Below are positions 13,151 through 59,757 of a stretch of DNA of 64,000 nt, one piece after another (position 1 is the stretch's first letter; each line of letters opens with the position of its first letter). The notes beneath the pieces are model-generated. The model was not told the origin of the DNA, did no database searches, and was given only the letters and a program-made list of their open reading frames with translations. A program made the position numbers and the translations under genes. This DNA is from a virus (taxonomy: Duplodnaviria; Caudoviricetes): the IMG/VR virus record IMGVR_UViG_3300047375_000738; one strand, written 5' to 3'.

Positions 13151-13849
13151 CTATTTATCAATATCTTCCTTGTACACAATTTTATCGATACGAGTAATAT
13201 TGTCACCGCAAATCAGTTGTACCATGAATAAAACTTTTTCGTCACGTACAAAAATATATTGTCCTTTGATCCAACGCTCTCTATTAAGAAAGTTTTTCAT
13301 TAGTACAGGCCCACAACGTGCTTTGTCAGTGTTGTTTTGTAGCCATGTGCCCATTGAACGCTTTGCTGTTTTCTGTCCAAACGTTAATTTAATTGGAAAG
13401 TTTGTTTTTTTGTCACTAAGTATAATGTTTGCATTAGATTGTAAGTATTTAATACTTGCTGTATCAGGTTCCCAAAATTCTTCAGCAATTTCAAACTTTG
13501 AAATTGTAGTTAGAAGTTTTTTATCATTACTATAGATTATTAGTGTATTATATTCACAACGTACTAAATATTCTTTACTATGTAATAACAATCTGCAAAT
13601 TTTATCAGCATCTGTTATGTCATTAGAATCAAGATGTAACTCACTACGCCACGTAGTCTTCTTTAACGGTAGTCCTAATTTTGCTGAAAGTTTGTAACTA
13701 TCAATTTGGCTACGTGCATAACTTAGTTTGCCGTTGCGTTGCATTTCAGTTCTAAACACACTTGCTAATGGACTACGGACGACTACTTTATATAGAAATC
13801 GTCCGTAGTGTAGTTTTTTGGTTTCAAACTTCTTCAACAACTTGTTCAA
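13151..13849 (-). CDS. Conserved jumbo-phage hypothetical protein
   Basis: 232 aa ORF directly downstream of clpA. Confidence 0.6.
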   Translation of the reverse strand: MNKLLKKFETKKLHYGRFLYKVVVRSPLASVFRTEMQRNGKLSYARSQIDSYKLSAKLGLPLKKTTWRSELHLDSNDITDADKICRLLLHSKEYLVRCEYNTLIIYSNDKKLLTTISKFEIAEEFWEPDTASIKYLQSNANIILSDKKTNFPIKLTFGQKTAKRSMGTWLQNNTDKARCGPVLMKNFLNRERWIKGQYIFVRDEKVLFMVQLICGDNITRIDKIVYKEDIDK

Positions 13850-16073
13850 CTTCTAGTTCAATTTTGTCATCAACAAGTTTAATAACAATGTCGCCGCCGT
13901 TTTTCAAGTCACCAAATAGTAGTGCTCTTGACAACGGACGTTTGATATCTTTATCAATTACACGCTGCAAAGGCCTTGCACCCATTTTAGGATCAAATCC
14001 TTTGTCAACTAAGTAGTCCAACGCTTCGTCTGTAATAGTAAACTTAACATCTTTTTGTTTGACCATGTCTTTGAGTTCTTTCATAAACTTCCCGACAATT
14101 TTCATCATTACAGGCTTGCCTAGTTTAGCAAATGTAATTGTAGCATCAAGTCTATTTCTAAACTCTGGCTTAAAGTAATTTTTTATACTAGTATCTTCGT
14201 ACTCAGTTTCCTCTGAGCCAAACCCGATAGCATTTTTCTCAGCTTCTGCTGCACCCAAGTTAGTTGTAAGAATTAATACAACATTACGTGCATCTGCTTC
14301 TTTGCCATTTGATCCTGTAACTTTGCCATTATCCATTAGCTGCAATAGTACGCTACTAACATCTGGGTGTGCTTTTTCAATTTCGTCTAGTAGCAATACA
14401 CAGTTAGGATTTTCTTGTAGTTTTACAATTAACTGTCCAGCATCGTCATCAAACCCAACATAGCCTGGAGGAGCACCAATAAGTTTAGCAACACTGTGCT
14501 TCTCTTGATACTCACTCATATCAAAACGTACTAGCGGAATGCCCATGTTTGTTGAAAGAGCTTTTGCAGTTTCTGTTTTACCTGTGCCAGTTGGGCCCAT
14601 AAACACAAAAGATCCAATTGGTTTATCATCAGGCTTTAGTCCTGCTTGCGCTACAAGAATCTTATCTACAATACCTTCAATAGCATCGTCTTGTCCAAAC
14701 ACACTACCTTTCATATTCTTTTCAAGATCTTTTAGATTCTCAGCTTCACGTTCTGCTACTTGCTCTTCGGGTAGTTTTACCATTTTAGCAAGTTCAAACT
14801 GAATTTCTTCTTCGGTAACAACCAAGTCTTCTGTTTGATCGTTTACTTTAAAGCGTGAACATGCTACGTCCAGCAAGTCGATTGCTTTATCTGGTAGCTT
14901 CTTATCAGGTTGATATTTTACACTAAGTTTTACTGCTGAAGCCATTGCATCGTCTGTAATCTTTACACCATGGAAGTCTTCGTAATATCCTACAATGCCT
15001 TTTAGAATTTCGAGTGTAGTTTCTTCGCTCGGTTCGTCAATACTTACACGTTGGAATCGACGCATTAATGCTCGATCCTTTTCAAAGAACTTGCGATACT
15101 CTTCCCATGTAGTTGACGCAACAACTTTTAAGTTACCCTTGCCTAATGCAGGTTTTAGTAAGTTAGCTAAATCGTTACTACTATTCTGTCCGCCTGCACC
15201 TGCTCCACTGATCATATGTGCTTCGTCAATAAACATAATAGTCTTGCCTTTCTTTTGTAGTCCGGCTAGTACTAGTTTAAAACGTTCCTCAAAGTCACCA
15301 CGATATTTACTACCAGCAAGCATAGCACCAATATCTAGTGCATATACATTATATTCTTTTAAAAACTCTGGTGTTTCGCCATTAACAATTTTCCAAGCAA
15401 GCCCTTCTGCAATAGCAGTTTTACCAACGCCTGGATCGCCTACCATTAGTACGTTGCTTTTACTACGACGACCTAGTGCTAGTGCAACACTACTTAGTTC
15501 GTCGTGGCGTCCAATTACAGGATCAATTTTGCCTGACTTTACTTGTGCATTTAAATCGTCTGTAAACTGTCGGATAGCTTGGTTAGCAGCACCAGCGTTC
15601 TCTTGTAGCTCTTGTTCTTCTTCTTGTTCGCCTATTGCAATATTAACAAATGCTTGCCACTCGGCTTTTGTAATTTTGGCCTTGTGTGTTGCAAAATACG
15701 CAAAGCTACGTTTTTCGCCTAGTATACTTGTAAATACATCAGAAATTTCAATTTTACTTCTGCCTTGAAATAACACTTGTGCAAATGCTCTATTCAATAC
15801 ACGCTCGACAGTTTGTGTTTTTTTAGGCTTCCATTTTTTACTAACAGTATCAGTATCAATTTTAATTTGTTCAAGAGACTTAATATAATTTTCAAGTTCA
15901 CTTTTGAGTAAGTCAACGTCGGCACCATACTCTTCAAGTGATTCTTGAAAGTTTTCTTCGCATAGCATAGCAAAAGTTAAATGCTCAAGTGTAACATATT
16001 CATGCTTTAACTTTTTTGCATCGCCGACTGCTTTATCAAATACTGCTTGTAATTCTGTACTCGGTTCAACCAT
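13824..16073 (-). CDS. clpA: ATP-dependent Clp protease ATP-binding subunit ClpA
   Basis: Clp N-domain (HEYVTLEHL), two AAA+ modules (GDPGVGKT/FIDEAH and GPTGTGKT/LLDEIEK), GARPL; no M-domain. Confidence 0.93.
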   Translation of the reverse strand: MVEPSTELQAVFDKAVGDAKKLKHEYVTLEHLTFAMLCEENFQESLEEYGADVDLLKSELENYIKSLEQIKIDTDTVSKKWKPKKTQTVERVLNRAFAQVLFQGRSKIEISDVFTSILGEKRSFAYFATHKAKITKAEWQAFVNIAIGEQEEEQELQENAGAANQAIRQFTDDLNAQVKSGKIDPVIGRHDELSSVALALGRRSKSNVLMVGDPGVGKTAIAEGLAWKIVNGETPEFLKEYNVYALDIGAMLAGSKYRGDFEERFKLVLAGLQKKGKTIMFIDEAHMISGAGAGGQNSSNDLANLLKPALGKGNLKVVASTTWEEYRKFFEKDRALMRRFQRVSIDEPSEETTLEILKGIVGYYEDFHGVKITDDAMASAVKLSVKYQPDKKLPDKAIDLLDVACSRFKVNDQTEDLVVTEEEIQFELAKMVKLPEEQVAEREAENLKDLEKNMKGSVFGQDDAIEGIVDKILVAQAGLKPDDKPIGSFVFMGPTGTGKTETAKALSTNMGIPLVRFDMSEYQEKHSVAKLIGAPPGYVGFDDDAGQLIVKLQENPNCVLLLDEIEKAHPDVSSVLLQLMDNGKVTGSNGKEADARNVVLILTTNLGAAEAEKNAIGFGSEETEYEDTSIKNYFKPEFRNRLDATITFAKLGKPVMMKIVGKFMKELKDMVKQKDVKFTITDEALDYLVDKGFDPKMGARPLQRVIDKDIKRPLSRALLFGDLKNGGDIVIKLVDDKIELEVEQVVEEV

Positions 16074-54726: not shown

Positions 54727-55141
54727 TTTACACCAATGGACATTAGCATATTACGAGCCATTGTTACACCAGTTTTTTCAACTTCTTCTTCGCAAAGTTC
54801 GTCAACTAGCAACTGATGCAGTGTTAATGCCATTTCAAGCTCTTCTTCGTTTAGCTGTTGGAACCAAGACACTAGCTGTTCGTTTGTATCACACTGCCAC
54901 ATTGTGTCTAACATTCTGCACTGTTCTTCAGTGAGCCCGTCGATCCTCATAGATTAAAAGGTTCTTTGTAACCTTCCTCAACAAGACTTGCAAAATATTC
55001 TTGGGCACGATCTAAGTCGTGATAATCGTGCTGCTTTTCAAACTCAAACGCATCAAAGTGATTAAACACTGCCCGGTTATCGTTGACTTTAACCAACACA
55101 CTGTTAGCATTTTTTTGTAATACACATTCTTTAAGTTTCAT
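54720..55141 (-). CDS. Two small hypothetical ORFs (54720-54950, 54947-55141)
   Basis: Start/stop coupled. Confidence 0.45.
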
Positions 55142-56327
55142 CGTTACCTACCAGTTTTGCTATCTTAGGGTTGACATCTACAAGTGCAGTATTGCCCTTA
55201 CTGTCAAGTTTACTTATAACATATCTACGCAGATTGTCAACCTCTTTTCGTGAATTTATTCGCCAATTTTTGTTTTTTATTTCTTCAACATGCTGTGTGT
55301 CTATAAACTTACTAACTTGCTGATCAATTGAGTTGTTGGTTAAAAACTGTTTTATGTAGTCTTTTTGTGCATAGCTTAACAAACTAATATTGTAATAGAT
55401 AGGATCGTGGCAAAAATTAACATTTACGCTTTCATGCGGAATACCTACCTTAGTACACCATTCAAGCATGTCAGTACCGCTTAGACAGTTTAACAAGCTC
55501 ACAGTGTATGTTATACGTATGTCAATGTCCTGCTGTAATGCGTGTACAATGTTATCTTCAACACGTTGCCATTTAGCAGGCGGACGTTGGTATTCGTAGT
55601 TAGCGCCTATATCGTCAATACTATAATGCAATTGTATGCGTTTAAACTGTGCAAACTGTTCTAGCAATTTATCTGTTAGTTTAAAGGTACCATTGGTATG
55701 ATATTTAATCCAAATATCTTTTGCTTTGTCTTGTGCAATTAAATGCTCTAGTAATTGGTTGTGTTCTTCGATTAAAAATGGTTCACCGCCGCTCAAATAT
55801 AGTACTTCTGCATTATTGCTTATGTTTAGAATACTATTCCAATTATCCTGCTGTTGTACCCAATTTTTTCCGTAGCTAGGATTTATAACCTGGCCAAATA
55901 ATTCTAATTCAGTAGCTTCCCACTTTTTTGTAAATTCACTATTGCATATCTTACATTTTAAGTTACAATGATTACCTAGTTTAACATCAAAAAGTACAGG
56001 GTTTGGAGCATCAGTTGAATCCATAAGGTGTAAATGTTTGCCGTGTATTTCAAGTTCACGCTGTCTGCGACTTAGTAAGCCTTGGTCTTCTTGGCTAAAG
56101 CATTTGTTGCATCCTGCTGGCCGTTCGCCGTTGATGTATTGCTGTCTTAGTGCTTTGTATTCTGCATTGTTCCAAACAGTTTCTAGTGTTGTATCTTTGT
56201 TGTTTAAATCTAGTTTGTTGCCCTGTTCGTCTGTAAACTCATACAAGTATTCGGCACAGGGTCTTACATAGCCTGTTGCACATACTTCAATTTGTGTCCA
56301 CGGTACAATGCACTTAGGTAATGTCAT
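55131..56327 (-). CDS. Radical SAM protein with N-terminal Twitch/SPASM-like domain
   Basis: CIVPW...RPC...CNKC, then NHCNLKCKIC, GGEP, TNGT; start revised to MTLPK. Confidence 0.85.
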   Translation of the reverse strand: MTLPKCIVPWTQIEVCATGYVRPCAEYLYEFTDEQGNKLDLNNKDTTLETVWNNAEYKALRQQYINGERPAGCNKCFSQEDQGLLSRRQRELEIHGKHLHLMDSTDAPNPVLFDVKLGNHCNLKCKICNSEFTKKWEATELELFGQVINPSYGKNWVQQQDNWNSILNISNNAEVLYLSGGEPFLIEEHNQLLEHLIAQDKAKDIWIKYHTNGTFKLTDKLLEQFAQFKRIQLHYSIDDIGANYEYQRPPAKWQRVEDNIVHALQQDIDIRITYTVSLLNCLSGTDMLEWCTKVGIPHESVNVNFCHDPIYYNISLLSYAQKDYIKQFLTNNSIDQQVSKFIDTQHVEEIKNKNWRINSRKEVDNLRRYVISKLDSKGNTALVDVNPKIAKLVGNDET

Positions 56328-57048
56328 ACTTGTCCCGTAAGAAAGGCATAATAACTTTTTCAGAAAAGAGTTTGTGCTGATAATTTCCAGGATGAGGATC
56401 TCTTGGATGGGGGAAACGGTCGTTACAATTTTCAACACACCATCCGTGTTCACTACTCACAGGTAAAAAATATTCAAAATCTATCATGTCTTTGAGATAG
56501 TCGTGCTGGTAATTTGCACGATCATCAGGCCTGTCTTTTAATACTTCATCTGTATAAGTGGTCATGAAATATTTAATATTATAATTTTGTAAAAACCACT
56601 GTGTTCTCAATATGTTTTCATAAGCATATATACTATCGCTTGGATGATTTTGATATCTCTTATACCAATTCTGTGAAAACAAACTATTAAATCCTACACC
56701 AATTAACACCCACCAACTTTGTTGTTGGGCATGTACTTGAGGCCATAAATGAGGACTGGTATCGCTATCAAACGGTTCGCATATTCCTAATCCTTCAGGC
56801 TTATCAATTAAAAATGCTCTACGTTCTTTGCCACTCCACATTATACCAACCAACATGTCTTCAGGGTTAACCCCTGCTTTTAAACATTCGTTTACTTGCC
56901 AAATAACTTTTCGACTAATTAAGTCGTTGCCCGAACTACCCACACCGGTTTGGTAATGAGTGTCATATTGTAGTCTATCTTGTAAATGCACAGGCCAGCA
57001 CATACTGTCAGCACTGAAGCTGCATCCTCCAGTAATTAATACTTTCAT
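56314..57048 (-). CDS. SGNH/GDSL-like protein
   Basis: GGCSFS...W...GVGSSGNDLI...MWSG. Confidence 0.55.
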   Translation of the reverse strand: MKVLITGGCSFSADSMCWPVHLQDRLQYDTHYQTGVGSSGNDLISRKVIWQVNECLKAGVNPEDMLVGIMWSGKERRAFLIDKPEGLGICEPFDSDTSPHLWPQVHAQQQSWWVLIGVGFNSLFSQNWYKRYQNHPSDSIYAYENILRTQWFLQNYNIKYFMTTYTDEVLKDRPDDRANYQHDYLKDMIDFEYFLPVSSEHGWCVENCNDRFPHPRDPHPGNYQHKLFSEKVIMPFLRDKYDIT

Positions 57049-57200
57049 TTGTTATCAATTCTTCCTTTGGTTCCACAATGTGGGCAATGCCAAGTTGTTC
57101 TGTCTGCACAATACTTGTCTTCCATTGTTGCAAACGTAAACCATCCTTTACATTTTATACATGTTAGATGCCAAATAATTTCTTTATGAGCTTTAAACAT
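57045..57200 (-). CDS. 51-aa zinc-ribbon protein (not in ORF track)
   Basis: MFKAHKEIIWHLTCIKCKGW...CPHCG; TATAAATA at 57206-57213. Confidence 0.6.
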   Translation of the reverse strand: MFKAHKEIIWHLTCIKCKGWFTFATMEDKYCADRTTWHCPHCGTKGRIDNK

Positions 57201-57214
57201 AAACATATTTATAT

Positions 57215-57292
57215 TGGTCGGGGATGCAAGATTCGAACTTGCGATCTTCTGCTCCCAAAGCAGACGGATTAACCAGACTTTCCTAATCCCCG
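57215..57292 (-). tRNA. trnP: tRNA-Pro(UGG)
   Basis: Cloverleaf CGGGGAT/ATCCCCG, loop TT-TGG-GA, TTCGAAT, A73, encoded CCA. Confidence 0.92.
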
Positions 57293-57294
57293 TT

Positions 57295-57371
57295 TGGTGC
57301 GCCCGGTAGGACTCGAACCTACGATCTACCCGTTATGAGCGGGGAGCTTTAACCAACTAAGCTACAGGCGC
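57295..57371 (-). tRNA. tRNA with CAU anticodon, most likely Ile2 (lysidine, reads AUA)
   Basis: Loop CT-CAT-AA. G1-C72, so not initiator. Has the TilS-type determinants C4-G69, C5-G68 and C29-G41. Encoded CCA. Elongator Met is not formally excluded. Confidence 0.85.
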
Positions 57372-57375
57372 AATT

Positions 57376-57449
57376 TGGCATCGGTGCAGGGAGTCGAACC
57401 CCGGCTTTCAGTTTTGGAGACTGACGTGCTACCGTAACACTTCACCGAC
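57376..57449 (-). tRNA. trnW: tRNA-Trp(CCA)
   Basis: GTCGGTG/CACCGAT, loop CT-CCA-AA, G73, encoded CCA. Confidence 0.9.
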
Positions 57450-57486
57450 AAAAAAAGCCCCTAATAAAATTAATTACTAGGGGCTT
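57450..57486 (-). terminator. Intrinsic terminator (attenuator) immediately 5' of tRNA-Trp
   Basis: AAGCCCCTAG-loop-TTAGGGGCTT; a run of 7 T follows GGGGC and ends one base before tRNA-Trp G1. Confidence 0.85.
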
Positions 57487-57514
57487 GTTGAAATAACTTT
57501 TTAAAAAGTCACAT

Positions 57515-57577
57515 TCAAGACGTACCCCGGTTATTCGGTGGCCAATATATTATACATATTGATATAGTCTTGAGCAT
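57515..57577 (-). CDS. Putative attenuator leader peptide MLKTISICIIYWPPNNRGTS (20 aa)
   Basis: AAGGA SD, then ATG CTC AAG ACT ATA TCA ATA TGT ATA ATA TAT TGG CCA CCG AAT AAC CGG GGT ACG TCT TGA. Confidence 0.75.
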   Translation of the reverse strand: MLKTISICIIYWPPNNRGTS

Positions 57578-57604
57578 GTTAAAATTCCTTATTTCTTACG
57601 TTCT

Positions 57605-57612
57605 TATTTATA
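57605..57612 (-). promoter_or_regulatory. T4 late-type promoter TATAAATA feeding the leader and tRNA operon
   Basis: Perfect TATAAATA, 27 nt upstream of the leader ATG. Confidence 0.75.
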
Positions 57613-57619
57613 TAAAATG

Positions 57620-57821
57620 ATAGGTTGGACTCTGTGAATACCAACAACCCCTTTGTAGAGCCACGCTCAAAAACAGGGAGCTTCATATTAAACGGTTACG
57701 TCTAAAAATACAACTTCGTATCTCTACGCTCTTGCATTGCCACTACAGCTATGAACCAAGTTACAACCTCTACGGATTGCCATTCCTTGCACTATCTAAC
57801 TTAGGATATCTCCTAACTTAT
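57620..57821 (-). ncRNA. Candidate structured non-coding RNA, class unknown
   Basis: Starts at the predicted TSS of a sigma70 promoter; no credible ORF; several hairpins. Confidence 0.4.
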
Positions 57822-57827
57822 GTACTT

Positions 57828-57856
57828 AATATAACAGCCTTTACTACCATTGTCAA
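57828..57856 (-). promoter_or_regulatory. sigma70-type promoter
   Basis: TTGACA-17-TATATT. Confidence 0.8.
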
Positions 57857-57871
57857 CCACTTTTTTGCATT

Positions 57872-58075
57872 TTATTTAAAATTCTTTTCAGTTCCGTCAG
57901 TTATTTTCTTTGCTAATCTGTATGGGAGGAACCCAAACATAAAAGGAAAAAATGCATGAATAATTCCTGTGATAAAAACTAATAGTGCTATACATGCAAA
58001 ATATACGGCATAGAAAAGATGCTCAAAATATGTTGTGCTTGCTTTCTGTAAATGCTTAAAATCAAATATTTTCAT
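57872..58075 (-). CDS. DUF6356-like small membrane protein
   Basis: HL...TYFEHL...IHAFFPFMF; SD AAAGGA. Confidence 0.6.
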   Translation of the reverse strand: MKIFDFKHLQKASTTYFEHLFYAVYFACIALLVFITGIIHAFFPFMFGFLPYRLAKKITDGTEKNFK

Positions 58076-58090
58076 ATGATTCCTTTGTTA

Positions 58091-58165
58091 TGGTAGTCCC
58101 TACGGGAGTCGAACCCGTCTTTCAAGGTTGAAAACCTGGCGTCCTAACCGATAGACGAAGGGACC
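58091..58165 (-). tRNA. trnE: tRNA-Glu(UUC)
   Basis: GGTCCCT/AGGGACT, loop TT-TTC-AA, encoded CCA. Confidence 0.9.
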
Positions 58166-58170
58166 AAGTT

Positions 58171-58245
58171 TGGCTGGAACGGTAGGACTCGAACCTACAA
58201 TCACTTGTACCAAAAACAAGGGCATTACCATTATGCTACGTTCCA
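58171..58245 (-). tRNA. trnQ: tRNA-Gln(UUG)
   Basis: TGGAACG/CGTTCCA, loop TT-TTG-GT, G73, encoded CCA. Confidence 0.9.
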
Positions 58246-58256
58246 TTGCCATTAAA

Positions 58257-58340
58257 TGGTGCGGATGGAGAGACTCGAACTCTCACGCCGTGAAGCACAG
58301 GTACCTAAAACCTGCGTGTCTACCATTCCACCACATCCGC
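58257..58340 (-). tRNA. trnL: tRNA-Leu(UAG)
   Basis: GCGGATG/CATCCGC, long variable arm, loop TT-TAG-GT, encoded CCA. Confidence 0.9.
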
Positions 58341-58342
58341 TA

Positions 58343-58418
58343 TGGTGCCTGTTGAGAGACTTGAACTCCCGACATGATGCTTACAAAGCACCTGCTCTAC
58401 CAGCTGAGCTAAACAGGC
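58343..58418 (-). tRNA. trnT: tRNA-Thr(UGU)
   Basis: GCCTGTT/AACAGGC, loop TT-TGT-AA, encoded CCA. Confidence 0.92.
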
Positions 58419-58859
58419 TTTATTTATTTCGACCTTTAAATGTGTCTGTCTGTGAATGACAGTTAGGACACAACAGTCGGAGATTACTTGGCACATTGTT
58501 CTTATTGTTGCCATCTATATGATCGCACTCTAATACAATGTCTTTGCCGTTATGCTTGCTAATACCACAGCACTCGCAAGTGTAACCTCTTTCACGGGCT
58601 AAGTACCCGCTTTTGTCTTTAATCCAACCTGGAATGTTATTACCCCAAGTATAGTCTTCGTTAAGCCATCTGGTAATTCTGGCTTCTCTTGTGGCAGCAC
58701 CTTGGCAAGCATTGTTACAATACTTGTTAGTGTTTTGCCTAACCCATACATTCTCTTTGCCGCAGTGTAAACAGTTATAAGTTTTCATTGGTGTAATACC
58801 TCCAATGTATTTATCACTGCTCTACCTTTTCTGCACCAGCTGAGCTAAACAGGCTTTAT
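58399..58859. repeat. 25-bp direct repeat (58399-58423 and 58835-58859) duplicating the tRNA-Thr 5' end around the HNH gene
   Basis: ATAAAGCCTGTTTAGCTCAGCTGGT (- strand) occurs twice; a further 10-mer match lies at 58392-58401 and 58817-58826. Confidence 0.9.
58420..58788 (-). mobile_element. HNH (homing-type) endonuclease gene inserted at tRNA-Thr
   Basis: CECCG...LECDHIDGNNKNN..SNLRLLCPNCH; own ATAAATA promoter (58808-58814) and GGAGG SD; flanked by a 25-bp direct repeat. Confidence 0.85.
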
Positions 58860-58930
58860 CTTTTTACTCTACAAATTGGACAAAAATCATTATGATCCAA
58901 TTCAAATTTACATTCAGGACATTTATTCAT
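58856..58930 (-). CDS. 24-aa mini zinc-ribbon ORF MNKCPECKFELDHNDFCPICRVKR
   Basis: CxxC-x10-CxxC; manual translation. Confidence 0.5.
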   Translation of the reverse strand: MNKCPECKFELDHNDFCPICRVKR

Positions 58931-58951
58931 AAAAATACTTATCCTGTATCT

Positions 58952-59042
58952 TGGCGGGCAGCCAGGGATTCGAACCCTGGGAACGCTATTAACGTTCGTC
59001 CGCTTAGTAGGCGGGTGCTTTAAACCACTCAGCCAACTGCCC
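58952..59042 (-). tRNA. trnS: tRNA-Ser with ACU anticodon
   Basis: GGGCAGT/GCTGCCC, long variable arm, G73, loop CT-ACT-AA, encoded CCA. Confidence 0.85.
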
Positions 59043-59047
59043 GTATT

Positions 59048-59266
59048 CTATTCAGTAGGAAACTCTACTACCGTATCGTCATCATTACTAACTATTGTTA
59101 GCATGGGTCTACTGTTGTTGTTATTTGCTGCTTCGTCTTCTTCTAACAGCTCTTCTAGTATGTCTGCAACTTGTTCATCTTCGAAGTGCAAATACTTTTC
59201 AATAATATCTAAACGGCTATCAATCTTATACAGCAATTCTAATATTTCATCAGCTTTAAAACTCAT
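59048..59266 (-). CDS. Small acidic hypothetical protein
   Basis: 72 aa ORF coupled to the upstream gene. Confidence 0.5.
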   Translation of the reverse strand: MSFKADEILELLYKIDSRLDIIEKYLHFEDEQVADILEELLEEDEAANNNNSRPMLTIVSNDDDTVVEFPTE

Positions 59267-59757
59267 TTTGCTGAAATACTTACATTTACAGGAATACGAT
59301 CGCCTACATTATACGAATTATATGTATAGCTTTTGCCAACTACACCATTCCATTCATAACGAATGCGATAGTTTTTAATTTGACGTTCAGTAGTATAACG
59401 ATTTTCTTGGTAACATTGCTTTTCACGTTTGTAGCCAACAATGCCACGTTTTCCTTGATTATTATCAGCAGCAATAATACCGCCTAGCACTGCACCTGCG
59501 GCAGCACCATTGTCTTTACCAGTAACACCTTTACCTAACAGTCCACCAATAATCATACCACCTAGCACATCAGCGCCGCTTGCGCCTCCGCCGGTGTTGC
59601 CATAGATAGGAACTTCAACATCGTTACAAATTGTAACAGGTTGATTGGTTGTTACTTCTTGATAGTTAGCTGTGACGTTAGTAATAGTAGCATAATTTTC
59701 AGCAGACGCTTGTGTAGCAAATGTTGCAATTGCGGCTGTAGCAAGTAAGTATTTCAT
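59263..59757 (-). CDS. Secreted glycine-zipper (2TM) protein
   Basis: Signal peptide MKYLLATAAIATFATQASA; GMIIGGLLG...GAAAGAVLGG. Confidence 0.75.
   Translation of the reverse strand: MKYLLATAAIATFATQASAENYATITNVTANYQEVTTNQPVTICNDVEVPIYGNTGGGASGADVLGGMIIGGLLGKGVTGKDNGAAAGAVLGGIIAADNNQGKRGIVGYKREKQCYQENRYTTERQIKNYRIRYEWNGVVGKSYTYNSYNVGDRIPVNVSISAK

Follow-up and report, generated by a model that had tools for sequence, protein, structure and literature searches.

A putative leader-peptide attenuator preceding a tRNA operon in an uncultured marine jumbo phage

Described attenuators and the layout of the phage locus

The leader-peptide attenuators described to date all control amino-acid biosynthesis or synthetase genes. 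In enterobacterial trpL (RF00513), a short translated leader with two Trp codons precedes overlapping antiterminator and terminator hairpins, a ribosome terminating at the stop codon masks region 2, and the intrinsic terminator lies directly 5′ of the regulated genes. The thrL (Thr, Ile) and ilvL (Leu, Val, Ile) leaders each combine control codons for more than one amino acid, in keeping with the amino acids that the operon provides. The pheST attenuator (pheM leader) is a case of leader-peptide attenuation acting on a gene of the translation apparatus, namely an aminoacyl-tRNA synthetase, in response to one amino acid. T-box riboswitches also read the charging status of tRNA and operate an antiterminator/terminator switch; however, they bind uncharged tRNA directly, without a ribosome, and precede synthetase or amino-acid genes.

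The locus described here lies on the − strand of a 64,000-nt window (the whole stretch of DNA that was analysed) from an uncultured marine jumbo phage. It resembles trpL in its short leader with a Trp codon, which we infer to be translated, in its overlapping hairpins, in the position of its stop codon over region 2 and in the placement of its terminator. It differs in that the genes behind the terminator encode tRNA-Trp, a tRNA with anticodon CAU and tRNA-Pro, that is, the sensed molecules themselves rather than biosynthetic enzymes, and in that the leader holds one Trp codon rather than two, with several different codons probably being sensed. The use of one leader for several amino acids recalls thrL and ilvL; unlike in those biosynthetic operons, the codon set of the phage leader is rewritten as tRNA genes come and go behind the terminator. 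With pheST, the locus shares a target in the translation apparatus, in this case tRNA genes instead of a synthetase. The RF00513 covariance model returned no match at E up to 1 in positions 57400–57900, and there was no T-box covariance match at the locus. Full-text literature searches returned no published description of leader-peptide attenuation controlling tRNA genes, and as far as these searches reach, the locus would be the first case.

All features given below are on the − strand. An earlier reading of the window, made from the letters alone (the sequence-only reading), had assigned the leader to a TATAAATA promoter. The octamer is indeed present (57605..57612) and is a candidate T4-type late promoter for the leader, but the promoter role draws no statistical support, with 4 copies in the window versus 8.2 expected; all 4 are on the coding strand. 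The Shine-Dalgarno (SD) sequence AAGGA (57586..57590) lies 8 nt 5′ of the ATG (57577) of the leader ORF MLKTISICIIYWPPNNRGTS (57515..57577, 20 codons plus TGA), in which ATA forms codons 5, 7, 9 and 10, TGG codon 12 and CCA CCG codons 13–14. The putative control codons ATA ATA TAT TGG CCA CCG (57536..57553) occupy positions −3 to +2 relative to TGG. Region 2 (C GGGGUACGUCUUGAAU, 57513..57529), which includes the stop codon, is predicted to pair as the 5′ arm of an antiterminator hairpin (57480..57528, predicted fold −16.8 kcal/mol). The predicted intrinsic terminator (57450..57486) consists of a hairpin of 13 pairs (57486–57455) and a run of seven U (57456–57450) that abuts G1 of tRNA-Trp(CCA) (57376..57449, 58 bits); the tRNA with anticodon CAU (57295..57371, 68.7 bits) and tRNA-Pro(UGG) (57215..57292, 65.5 bits) follow. 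The SD, the 20-codon ORF, its codon positions, the terminator and the three tRNAs were thus all found where the sequence-only reading had placed them.

Because the U-tract touches G1 of tRNA-Trp, there is no room for a separate promoter, and the tRNAs of the window need read-through of the terminator. A possible internal promoter for the tRNAs, TTGACG-17-TATTTT in the antiterminator region of relatives, was rejected, as its transcript would still hold the whole terminator and the copy in the window reads TATTTC instead of TATTTT.

The CAU tRNA is probably of the AUA-reading Ile2 type. It is not an initiator, because it has G1:C72, and it carries C4:G69, C5:G68, U12:A23, C29:G41 and A73, which we take to be determinants of E. 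coli tRNA-Ile2. CAU tRNAs also accompany ATA-ATA leaders just as UAU tRNAs do. The sole match in a BLAST search of this tRNA against E. coli was a tRNA-Val (72 % identity).

The manA motif (Weinberg et al. 2010, PMC2864571) has been described in marine metagenomes, in T4-like cyanophages and in gamma-proteobacteria, and its place there is in 5′ UTRs of genes. Immediately 5′ of the leader, we observed an RNA matching this Rfam family (RF01745; 57614..57816, 45.7 bits, E about 1e-10). The match covers the full model with a score below the gathering score of 55.2, while the orthologues in L012 and L009 score 58.0 bits (above gathering) and 37 bits, respectively. A position in front of a leader peptide and tRNA operon is a context not listed in PMC2864571. 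In assembled metatranscriptome contigs, the word depth over the manA-like RNA was 415–2480 versus 17–30 in its flanks. Further upstream is a sigma-70-type promoter, TTGACA-17-TATATT with an extended TG (57828..57856, 11/12 consensus matches), which is the best promoter site in 56500–59500 and probably starts a transcript carrying both the manA-like RNA and the leader.

Spread and conservation of the module

This compact module (about 130 nt) is conserved in about 90 distinct marine phage contigs, all of its loci belonging to one phage lineage. Its parts are, in order, a promoter, the AAGGA SD, an ORF of 15–22 codons in which a single TGG is invariant, the terminator and tRNA-Trp, followed by further tRNAs that differ between copies. 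The arrangement of SD, ORF, terminator and tRNA-Trp was present in 49/49 full-length distinct modules from viral contigs and in 87/88 full-length metagenome copies, and the ORF, whose conservation the sequence-only reading had made a test of its idea, was intact in these relatives despite indels. Although the metagenome copies were retrieved with a module pattern that contains no tRNA, tRNA-Trp lies 3′ of every untruncated copy with downstream DNA read, bar one of 68 distinct metagenome copies, for which ARAGORN calls no tRNA-Trp within 700 nt. The module pattern had 0 matches in 185,579 bacterial and archaeal genomes. Searches for a close cultured phage relative returned tRNA matches only (blastn with the locus) or no match (a flanking protein), and the consensus-like module had no match in INPHARED; the loci reached through the neighbouring 244-aa gene were too distant and were devoid of the module.

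Only one full-length copy (L246) fails to keep the SD and the in-frame start and stop codons, while the other two frames contain stops in 30/46 and 35/46 leaders. A purine-rich SD, (A/G)AGG(A/T), reading AAGGA in nearly all cases, lies 5′ of the start codon in the distinct leaders, with 4 exceptions (L063, L114, L124 and L136) that have weaker purine runs in its place. At the peptide level, the N-terminal residues M-x-K-T are conserved and the Trp is invariant, with Pro or Cys next in almost all leaders. Conservation is also extensive at the nucleotide level, and the conserved N- and C-terminal codons overlap region 2 and both arms of a helix, P1. In L022 and L029, the ORF ends just 5′ of the GGGG of region 2 and GGGGTATGTCTTGAC is nevertheless kept, indicating that this stretch is constrained as RNA and not as peptide.

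Leader codons and the downstream tRNA genes

The sequence-only reading proposed that the leader codons should vary with the tRNA set behind the terminator, and by computation they do. In a discovery set of 41 leaders, 146 codons were matched to downstream tRNAs versus 96.1 ± 6.0 on permutation. For the codons at −7 to +2 around TGG, the match to downstream tRNAs had z 8.0 in this set and z 4.9 in an independent replication set of 42 new leader variants. When same-strand tRNAs within 3 kb upstream were used as a control, the leader codons showed no match (z −1.75), which led us to reject a genome-wide codon-usage effect as the cause; Gly(tcc), for example, is upstream in 14 loci, and 0 of those leaders have a Gly codon before TGG. 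The enrichment of matched codons is confined to positions −7 to +2 around TGG.

The clearest association is that of the ATA-ATA doublet, for which a CAU or UAU tRNA lies downstream in 14/14 leader variants, window included. The doublet went with a cat or tat tRNA in 8/8 versus 0/33 leaders at discovery, a ninth case being found later, and in 5/5 versus 3/37 at replication (p 7e-5); three relatives lack the doublet despite a cat or tat tRNA. In the replication set, a Cys codon beside TGG likewise went with tRNA-Cys (p 0.008). These per-tRNA tests were designed after the discovery data had been seen. Associations of Gly, Tyr and Gln codons with their tRNAs were not replicated in the 42 new variants, and the Gly codon concerned, GGT, is not the strict-wobble cognate of anticodon UCC. 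On a tree in which the trait codons were masked, four independent changes all went in the same direction, and seven traits summed on the trait-masked tree gave about 16 same versus 0.3 opposite changes.

The one-to-one correspondence between control codons and tRNAs claimed for the window therefore stands for TGG and tRNA-Trp, which is invariant, and for ATA and tRNA-CAU/UAU; it does not stand for Pro, whose codons fail to track tRNA-Pro (p 0.19 and 1.0). CCN follows TGG in nearly every leader, whether tRNA-Pro is present or absent. Among the ATA codons, the claim fits the doublet (codons 9–10), whereas the enrichment is weaker in the part of the leader that contains codons 5 and 7.

The behaviour of the Pro codons bears on another possibility, namely that the leader product is an arrest peptide (…Y/C-W-P-P…) that sets read-through in response to a signal other than tRNA, such as free tryptophan, as TnaC does, or EF-P activity. 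W-P-P is a known stalling context, and both the invariant Trp with its following Pro or Cys and the indifference of the Pro codons to tRNA-Pro would agree with such a peptide. We regard this explanation as improbable, however. The CCN codons are also explained by their second role as the 5′ arm of a hairpin, P3, in which they pair with the GGGG of region 2; in the window, a ribosome halted with the second Pro codon in its A site is already too far along for the antiterminator to form, which would favour termination, not induction; and ATA, Cys and Ser codons track tRNA content, which points to the decoding of specific codons.

Alternative folds and the proposed mechanism

The sequence-only reading had called the locus an attenuator from its leader and terminator, and folding supports this by revealing an alternative antiterminator whose formation depends on the position of the ribosome. 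The GGGGU of region 2, whose GGGG lies at 57528–57525, has two possible partners: GCC.CCG at the Trp-Pro codons, giving hairpin P3, and GCCCC in the 5′ arm of the terminator. In the window, the predicted antiterminator consists of the pairs GGGGU/GCCCC, GU/AC and UGAA/UUCA, with an inner hairpin of GUGACUUU with AAAGUUAU (z −2.6 versus shuffles); it is the second weakest of the family, only that of L022 being weaker (−15.0 kcal/mol). When the RNA from TGG+12 to the terminator loop was folded, representing a ribosome with TGG in the A site, the antiterminator formed in 46/46 leaders, with a family mean of −20.9 kcal/mol versus −10.4 for shuffles (z −3.9), whereas a ribosome on the stop codon leaves a structure of a mere −1.05 kcal/mol. 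The antiterminator is the minimum-energy fold for an A-site stall at every codon up to TGG, and past it in 70 % of leaders at +1, 39 % at +2, 9 % at +3 and 0 % from +4 to the stop; in the window, it forms for stalls through codon +1.

Covariation was assessed on alignments. For the terminator, 93 % of cells were paired and the covariation score exceeded all 500 shuffles. For the antiterminator, 90.3 % of cells were paired, and compensatory double changes were not above shuffles in the alignment-based test. Covariation here is weak because the element is highly conserved, and in the divergent L027 clade the pairing is preserved, but in a shifted register that escapes the alignment. RNAalifold on the MAFFT alignment returned only the terminator and a 3-bp hairpin, with no formal covariation for P1–P3.

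In its minimum-energy fold, the full-length RNA is compact, with hairpins P1 (45/46 leaders), P2 and P3 (43/46) followed by the terminator. Such a fold would suit a stand-alone small RNA gene, transcribed from its own promoter to its own terminator, with an incidental ORF and with tRNAs expressed through constitutive leakage of the terminator; much of the conservation is indeed at the nucleotide level, and terminated attenuator transcripts can act as small RNAs, rnTrpL (PMC7968998) being an example. We consider a stand-alone small RNA similarly improbable. It does not account for the SD and in-frame start and stop kept across indels in all full-length copies but one, leaves the tracking of downstream but not upstream tRNAs unexplained, and gives no reason why the codon enrichment ends exactly where a ribosome would start to cover region 2. 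The transcript may still have a trans-acting role beside attenuation. P1–P3 might also be thought to block the antiterminator and so to enforce termination of an untranslated leader, a role lacking thermodynamic support, because in 40/46 leaders the antiterminator remains the fold of lowest energy when neither a ribosome nor the terminator 3′ arm is present. Finally, an ordinary small protein gene with a terminator before the tRNA cluster by chance, as the good SD, conserved ORF and N-terminal M-x-K-T might suggest, is very improbable, given that the conserved terminal codons coincide with the P1 arms and region 2, that L022 and L029 lose the C-terminus yet keep the nucleotides, and that the interior residues vary in step with tRNA content.

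We therefore favour, with a probability of roughly 0.8, a ribosome-mediated (trp-type) transcription attenuator gating the phage tRNA operon. In this model, RNA polymerase would transcribe the leader while a ribosome, loaded at AAGGA/ATG, translates close behind. A ribosome reaching the TGA would cover region 2 (GGGGUACGUCUUGA), the terminator (57486–57455) would form and the transcript would end at the U-tract, one base short of tRNA-Trp. Were the ribosome instead to wait for charged tRNA at ATA ATA, TGG or the first CCA, region 2 would be left free to pair with the terminator 5′ arm (GCCCC), allowing the polymerase to read into tRNA-Trp, tRNA-CAU and tRNA-Pro, and RNase P would cut directly 3′ of the U-tract. 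The direction of regulation, as we infer it, would be negative feedback, with phage tRNAs being made when their charged forms are scarce. The suggestions of the sequence-only reading that such a switch might respond to host anticodon-nuclease defence, or the W-P-P stretch to EF-P, are speculative.

By extension, it appears likely that the modules form a widespread phage attenuator family that autoregulates tRNA genes through stalling on cognate codons, the leader being rewritten at each gain or loss of a tRNA behind the terminator, and that in the clade of this phage the attenuator acts in series with the manA riboswitch candidate as a second input. The orphan manA motif would also acquire a new genomic context.

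The usual view of phage tRNA genes is that they are constitutive aids to codon usage or that they counter host tRNA-cleaving defences, and their regulation is almost unexplored. If a codon-matched attenuator does operate here, these phages would gauge for each codon how fast it is decoded and replenish just those tRNAs that are limiting. Their leader sequences would then be a natural read-out of the codons that each phage treats as limiting, and they give indirect evidence that phage tRNAs with a CAU anticodon read AUA. At about 130 nt, the module could also find use as a portable tRNA-availability sensor.

The leader locus and its surroundings in the window

On the − strand, the locus opens with TATAAATA (57612–57605), an AAGGA Shine–Dalgarno (SD) sequence (57590–57586) and the leader ORF MLKTISICIIYWPPNNRGTS, which starts at the ATG at 57577 and runs to 57515; its codons 5, 7, 9 and 10 are ATA, codon 12 is TGG and codons 13–14 are CCA CCG. 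A terminator hairpin of 13 bp (57486–57455) follows, and its run of seven T, ending at 57450, adjoins G1 of tRNA-Trp (57449), with tRNA(cat) and then tRNA-Pro(tgg) lying 3′ of tRNA-Trp on the same strand. The SD, ORF, control codons, terminator and tRNAs described by the sequence-only reading were exact in every coordinate. A sigma-70 promoter, TTGACA-17-TATATT (57856–57828, −), is a better promoter match than TATAAATA, of which the window has four copies, all on the coding strand. A second copy (57206–57213, −) lies directly 3′ of tRNA-Pro and ends on the ATG that opens a 53-aa ORF (57206–57045, −), an arrangement that suggests a leaderless late transcript; the Cys pairs of this ORF suggest a putative zinc ribbon.

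Between the sigma-70 promoter and the leader, positions 57816–57614 (−) align end to end with the Rfam model of manA, an orphan riboswitch candidate (E ~1e-10; 45.7 bits, short of the 55.2 gathering score). Copies directly upstream of the tRNA leader are also present in two related phage contigs (L012:4134–4344 and L009:1610–1815), that of L012 passing the gathering score at 58.0 bits. The manA-like RNA precedes the leader only in this clade (window, L009 and L012), where it replaces the sigma-70 promoter located before the SD in other copies. Contig word depth in one marine metatranscriptome was 415–2480 across 57597–57801, compared with 17.5 across the leader and 29.7 on the upstream side (roughly 15–140x the flanks), suggesting an abundant, separately accumulating manA-like RNA, with the proviso that contigs are no proof of RNA ends or of an RNA origin. 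The same proviso applies to one contig (57375–57647) that bridges the terminator.

The DNA polymerase of the window is 43–49% identical to those of jumbo phages Atu_ph07, Phosso and Vibrio phage 2.275.O, and the stretch is present in many seawater metagenome runs. The upstream tRNA cluster includes a class II tRNA-Ser with anticodon ACT (A34; 58952–59042, −), conserved across related phage contigs (L019, L020 and many relatives), and an HNH endonuclease gene (58420–58788, −) between tRNA-Ser(act) and tRNA-Thr. The window also encodes a 749-aa protein matching PHROGs 'ATP-dependent protease' (phrog_4871; 13824–16073, −) and a 440-aa radical SAM protein (55131–56453, −); radical SAM homologues occur 0.5–3 kb downstream of the leader module in L009–L018.

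A conserved leader module in related phages

Relatives were sought with the exact terminator/tRNA-Trp junction, with the tRNA-Trp 5′ end and with a leader-internal pattern, GGGGTATGTCTTRACGYGAC, free of any tRNA sequence. A profile search over all retrieved sequences recovered 57 distinct copies of the module from IMG/VR contigs, and one metagenome scan added a further 68. The module pattern had no match in 185,579 bacterial and archaeal genomes, and no copy was found in cultured phages at blastn sensitivity.

All full-length copies share the order promoter, purine-rich SD (AAGGA in nearly all), ORF, region 2, AU-rich inner hairpin, GC-rich terminator with a U-tract and tRNA-Trp, the last either direct or after an insert of 20–95 nt and followed by a variable tRNA set. 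The ORF starts with ATG or GTG, has 15–22 open codons and carries one TGG at a fixed place in every full-length copy; some leaders have a second TGG overlapping region 2, the conserved GGGGTATGTCTT(G/A)AC. Conservation of the leader ORF in orthologous loci, which had been proposed as a check, was borne out, with the frame intact in 49/49 viral-contig and 87/88 metagenome full-length copies, while stops interrupt the other two frames in 30/46 and 35/46 leaders. Two ORFs (L022 and L029) end at a TAG just 5′ of GGGG and the nucleotides beyond are still conserved, so the C-terminal/region-2 part is constrained as RNA, not peptide.

A conserved insert of 75–95 nt, missing from the window, separates the U-tract from tRNA-Trp in L071:3368–3460, L012:4495–4589, L009:1968–2061 and ~15 further loci. 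It folds into a three-way junction with ACUACACUA/UAGUGUAGU as the closing helix (~−25 kcal/mol), with no Rfam match in the loci scanned. L059, L037 and L056 carry a second mini-ORF in the interval from the leader terminator to tRNA-Trp; it has a separate SD and encodes a W-x-W motif (e.g. MTDSEYWRWMKSQVE).

Alternative folds of the leader RNA

The full-length leader folds into three hairpins and then the terminator: P1, which joins the start-codon region to the stop-codon segment GUCUUGA (45/46 leaders); P2, the inner hairpin ending in the Trp codon; and P3, pairing GCC.CC of the post-Trp codons with GGGGU (43/46). We modelled a stalled ribosome with its A site on TGG, RNA free from TGG+12 and the terminator 3′ arm not yet made. 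In this state, all 46 distinct leaders were predicted to form a long antiterminator in which GCCCC, the core of the terminator 5′ arm, is tied up, with a mean of −20.9 kcal/mol vs −10.4 for dinucleotide shuffles (z −3.9), equal to the terminator mean, also −20.9 kcal/mol; the window antiterminator reached −16.8 kcal/mol (z −2.6). A ribosome placed on the stop codon left structure worth only −1.05 kcal/mol.

When the stall position was scanned, the antiterminator had the lowest energy with any codon up to TGG in the A site, and its frequency then fell to 70% at +1, 39% at +2 and 9% at +3, with none from +4. TGG, which lies 12–19 nt before region 2, is therefore the last codon at which stalling is compatible with the antiterminator across all leaders; in the window, CCG in the A site already blocks it.

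Terminator pairing showed covariation (93% of alignment cells paired, score above all 500 shuffles). For the antiterminator, 90.3% of cells paired vs 29–62% with the partner slid, and double changes were not above shuffles; unlike for the terminator, the alignment thus shows only conserved pairing potential. Folded with no ribosome, 40/46 leaders still favoured the antiterminator, and a classical anti-antiterminator role of P1–P3 is therefore not supported thermodynamically.

Leader codons, downstream tRNAs and the proposed mechanism

In a discovery set of 41 distinct leaders, all followed by 600 nt or more of sequence, 146 codons were readable by the downstream tRNAs (Trp excluded) vs 96.1 ± 6.0 on permutation. 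An ATA-ATA doublet, always at codons −3 and −2 before TGG, accompanied a cat or tat tRNA in 8/8 leaders, whereas leaders lacking the doublet had such a tRNA in 0/33; L136 is a ninth doublet leader with a cat/tat tRNA. A Cys codon beside TGG was associated with tRNA-Cys, Ser TCA/TCG just after TGG with tRNA-Ser(tga) and a Gly codon before TGG with tRNA-Gly(tcc); Pro codons and tRNA-Pro showed no association. Matched codons were enriched only at −7 to +2 (12 vs 3.2 expected at −3; 15 vs 4.6 at −2), the enrichment being gone at +3 and beyond, where the modelled stall no longer permits the antiterminator.

A module tree built with trait codons masked placed four changes of ATA-ATA and four of the Ile-type tRNA at the same four points, and across seven traits ~16 independent pairs ran in the same direction vs 0.3 in the opposite. 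Sister pairs show the co-change directly: ATT ACT TGT TGG CCA TCA (L059) stands before tRNAs Trp, Pro, Ser and Cys; ATA ATA TGT TGG CCA TCA (L140) before Trp, Pro, Cys, Ser and Ile(tat); and L102, with ATA ATA GGT TGG, has gained Gly, cat and tat and lost Cys.

A genome-wide codon-usage explanation was considered, and the upstream control argues against it. At 32 loci where 1.5 kb or more of upstream sequence was available, downstream tRNAs gave 100 matches vs 57.9 ± 5.3 (z 8.0), and same-strand tRNAs within 3 kb upstream gave 24 vs 32.0 ± 4.6 (z −1.75); tRNA-Gly(tcc) is upstream in 14 loci, with a Gly codon before TGG in 0/14 leaders. The per-tRNA tests, framed after viewing the discovery data, were rerun unchanged on 42 leader variants exclusive to the later metagenome scan. 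Replication held for the match as a whole (85 vs 61.3 ± 4.9, z 4.9), for ATA-ATA with cat/tat (5/5 vs 3/37, p 7e-5, the three exceptions having one to three single ATA codons each) and for Cys (p 0.008); Ser was marginal (p 0.06), and the Gly, Tyr, Gln and Pro tests gave no replication in these variants. The predicted co-variation of leader codons with downstream tRNA identity thus holds. The one-to-one match claimed for the window stands for TGG with tRNA-Trp, invariant in the family, and for ATA ATA (57553–57548) with tRNA(cat), the best-supported variable pairing, but a pairing of CCA CCG with tRNA-Pro is not supported; CCN follows TGG nearly everywhere and forms the P3 5′ arm.

The ATA ATA pairing implies that the CAU tRNA would read AUA. 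It is not an initiator, because it has G1:C72, and it carries base pairs that we take to be E. coli tRNA-Ile2 determinants; BLAST did not settle its identity. The UAU-anticodon tRNAs (L061, L119, L102, L136, L140 and L086) are 92–94 nt long, with a long variable arm, unusual for an Ile tRNA, containing a conserved CCAGATTAG.

The best explanation, to which we assign a probability of roughly 0.8, is trp-type attenuation with negative feedback on charged-tRNA supply. A W-P-P arrest peptide sensing Trp or EF-P may coexist with such an attenuator, but as the explanation it is unlikely, leaving the ATA and Cys tracking unaccounted for. That the locus is a stand-alone sRNA is very unlikely, since the conserved SD and ORF and the downstream-specific codon tracking would go unexplained; a second, trans-acting role of the terminated leader is possible by analogy with rnTrpL (PMC7968998). 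An ordinary small protein gene is the least credible reading, with hardly any weight. No Rfam family covers the leader, and a full-text literature search found no report of tRNA genes under leader-peptide attenuation. Attenuation of this kind is a known mechanism; what is new is its target, tRNA genes, and the evolutionary rewriting of its sensor.
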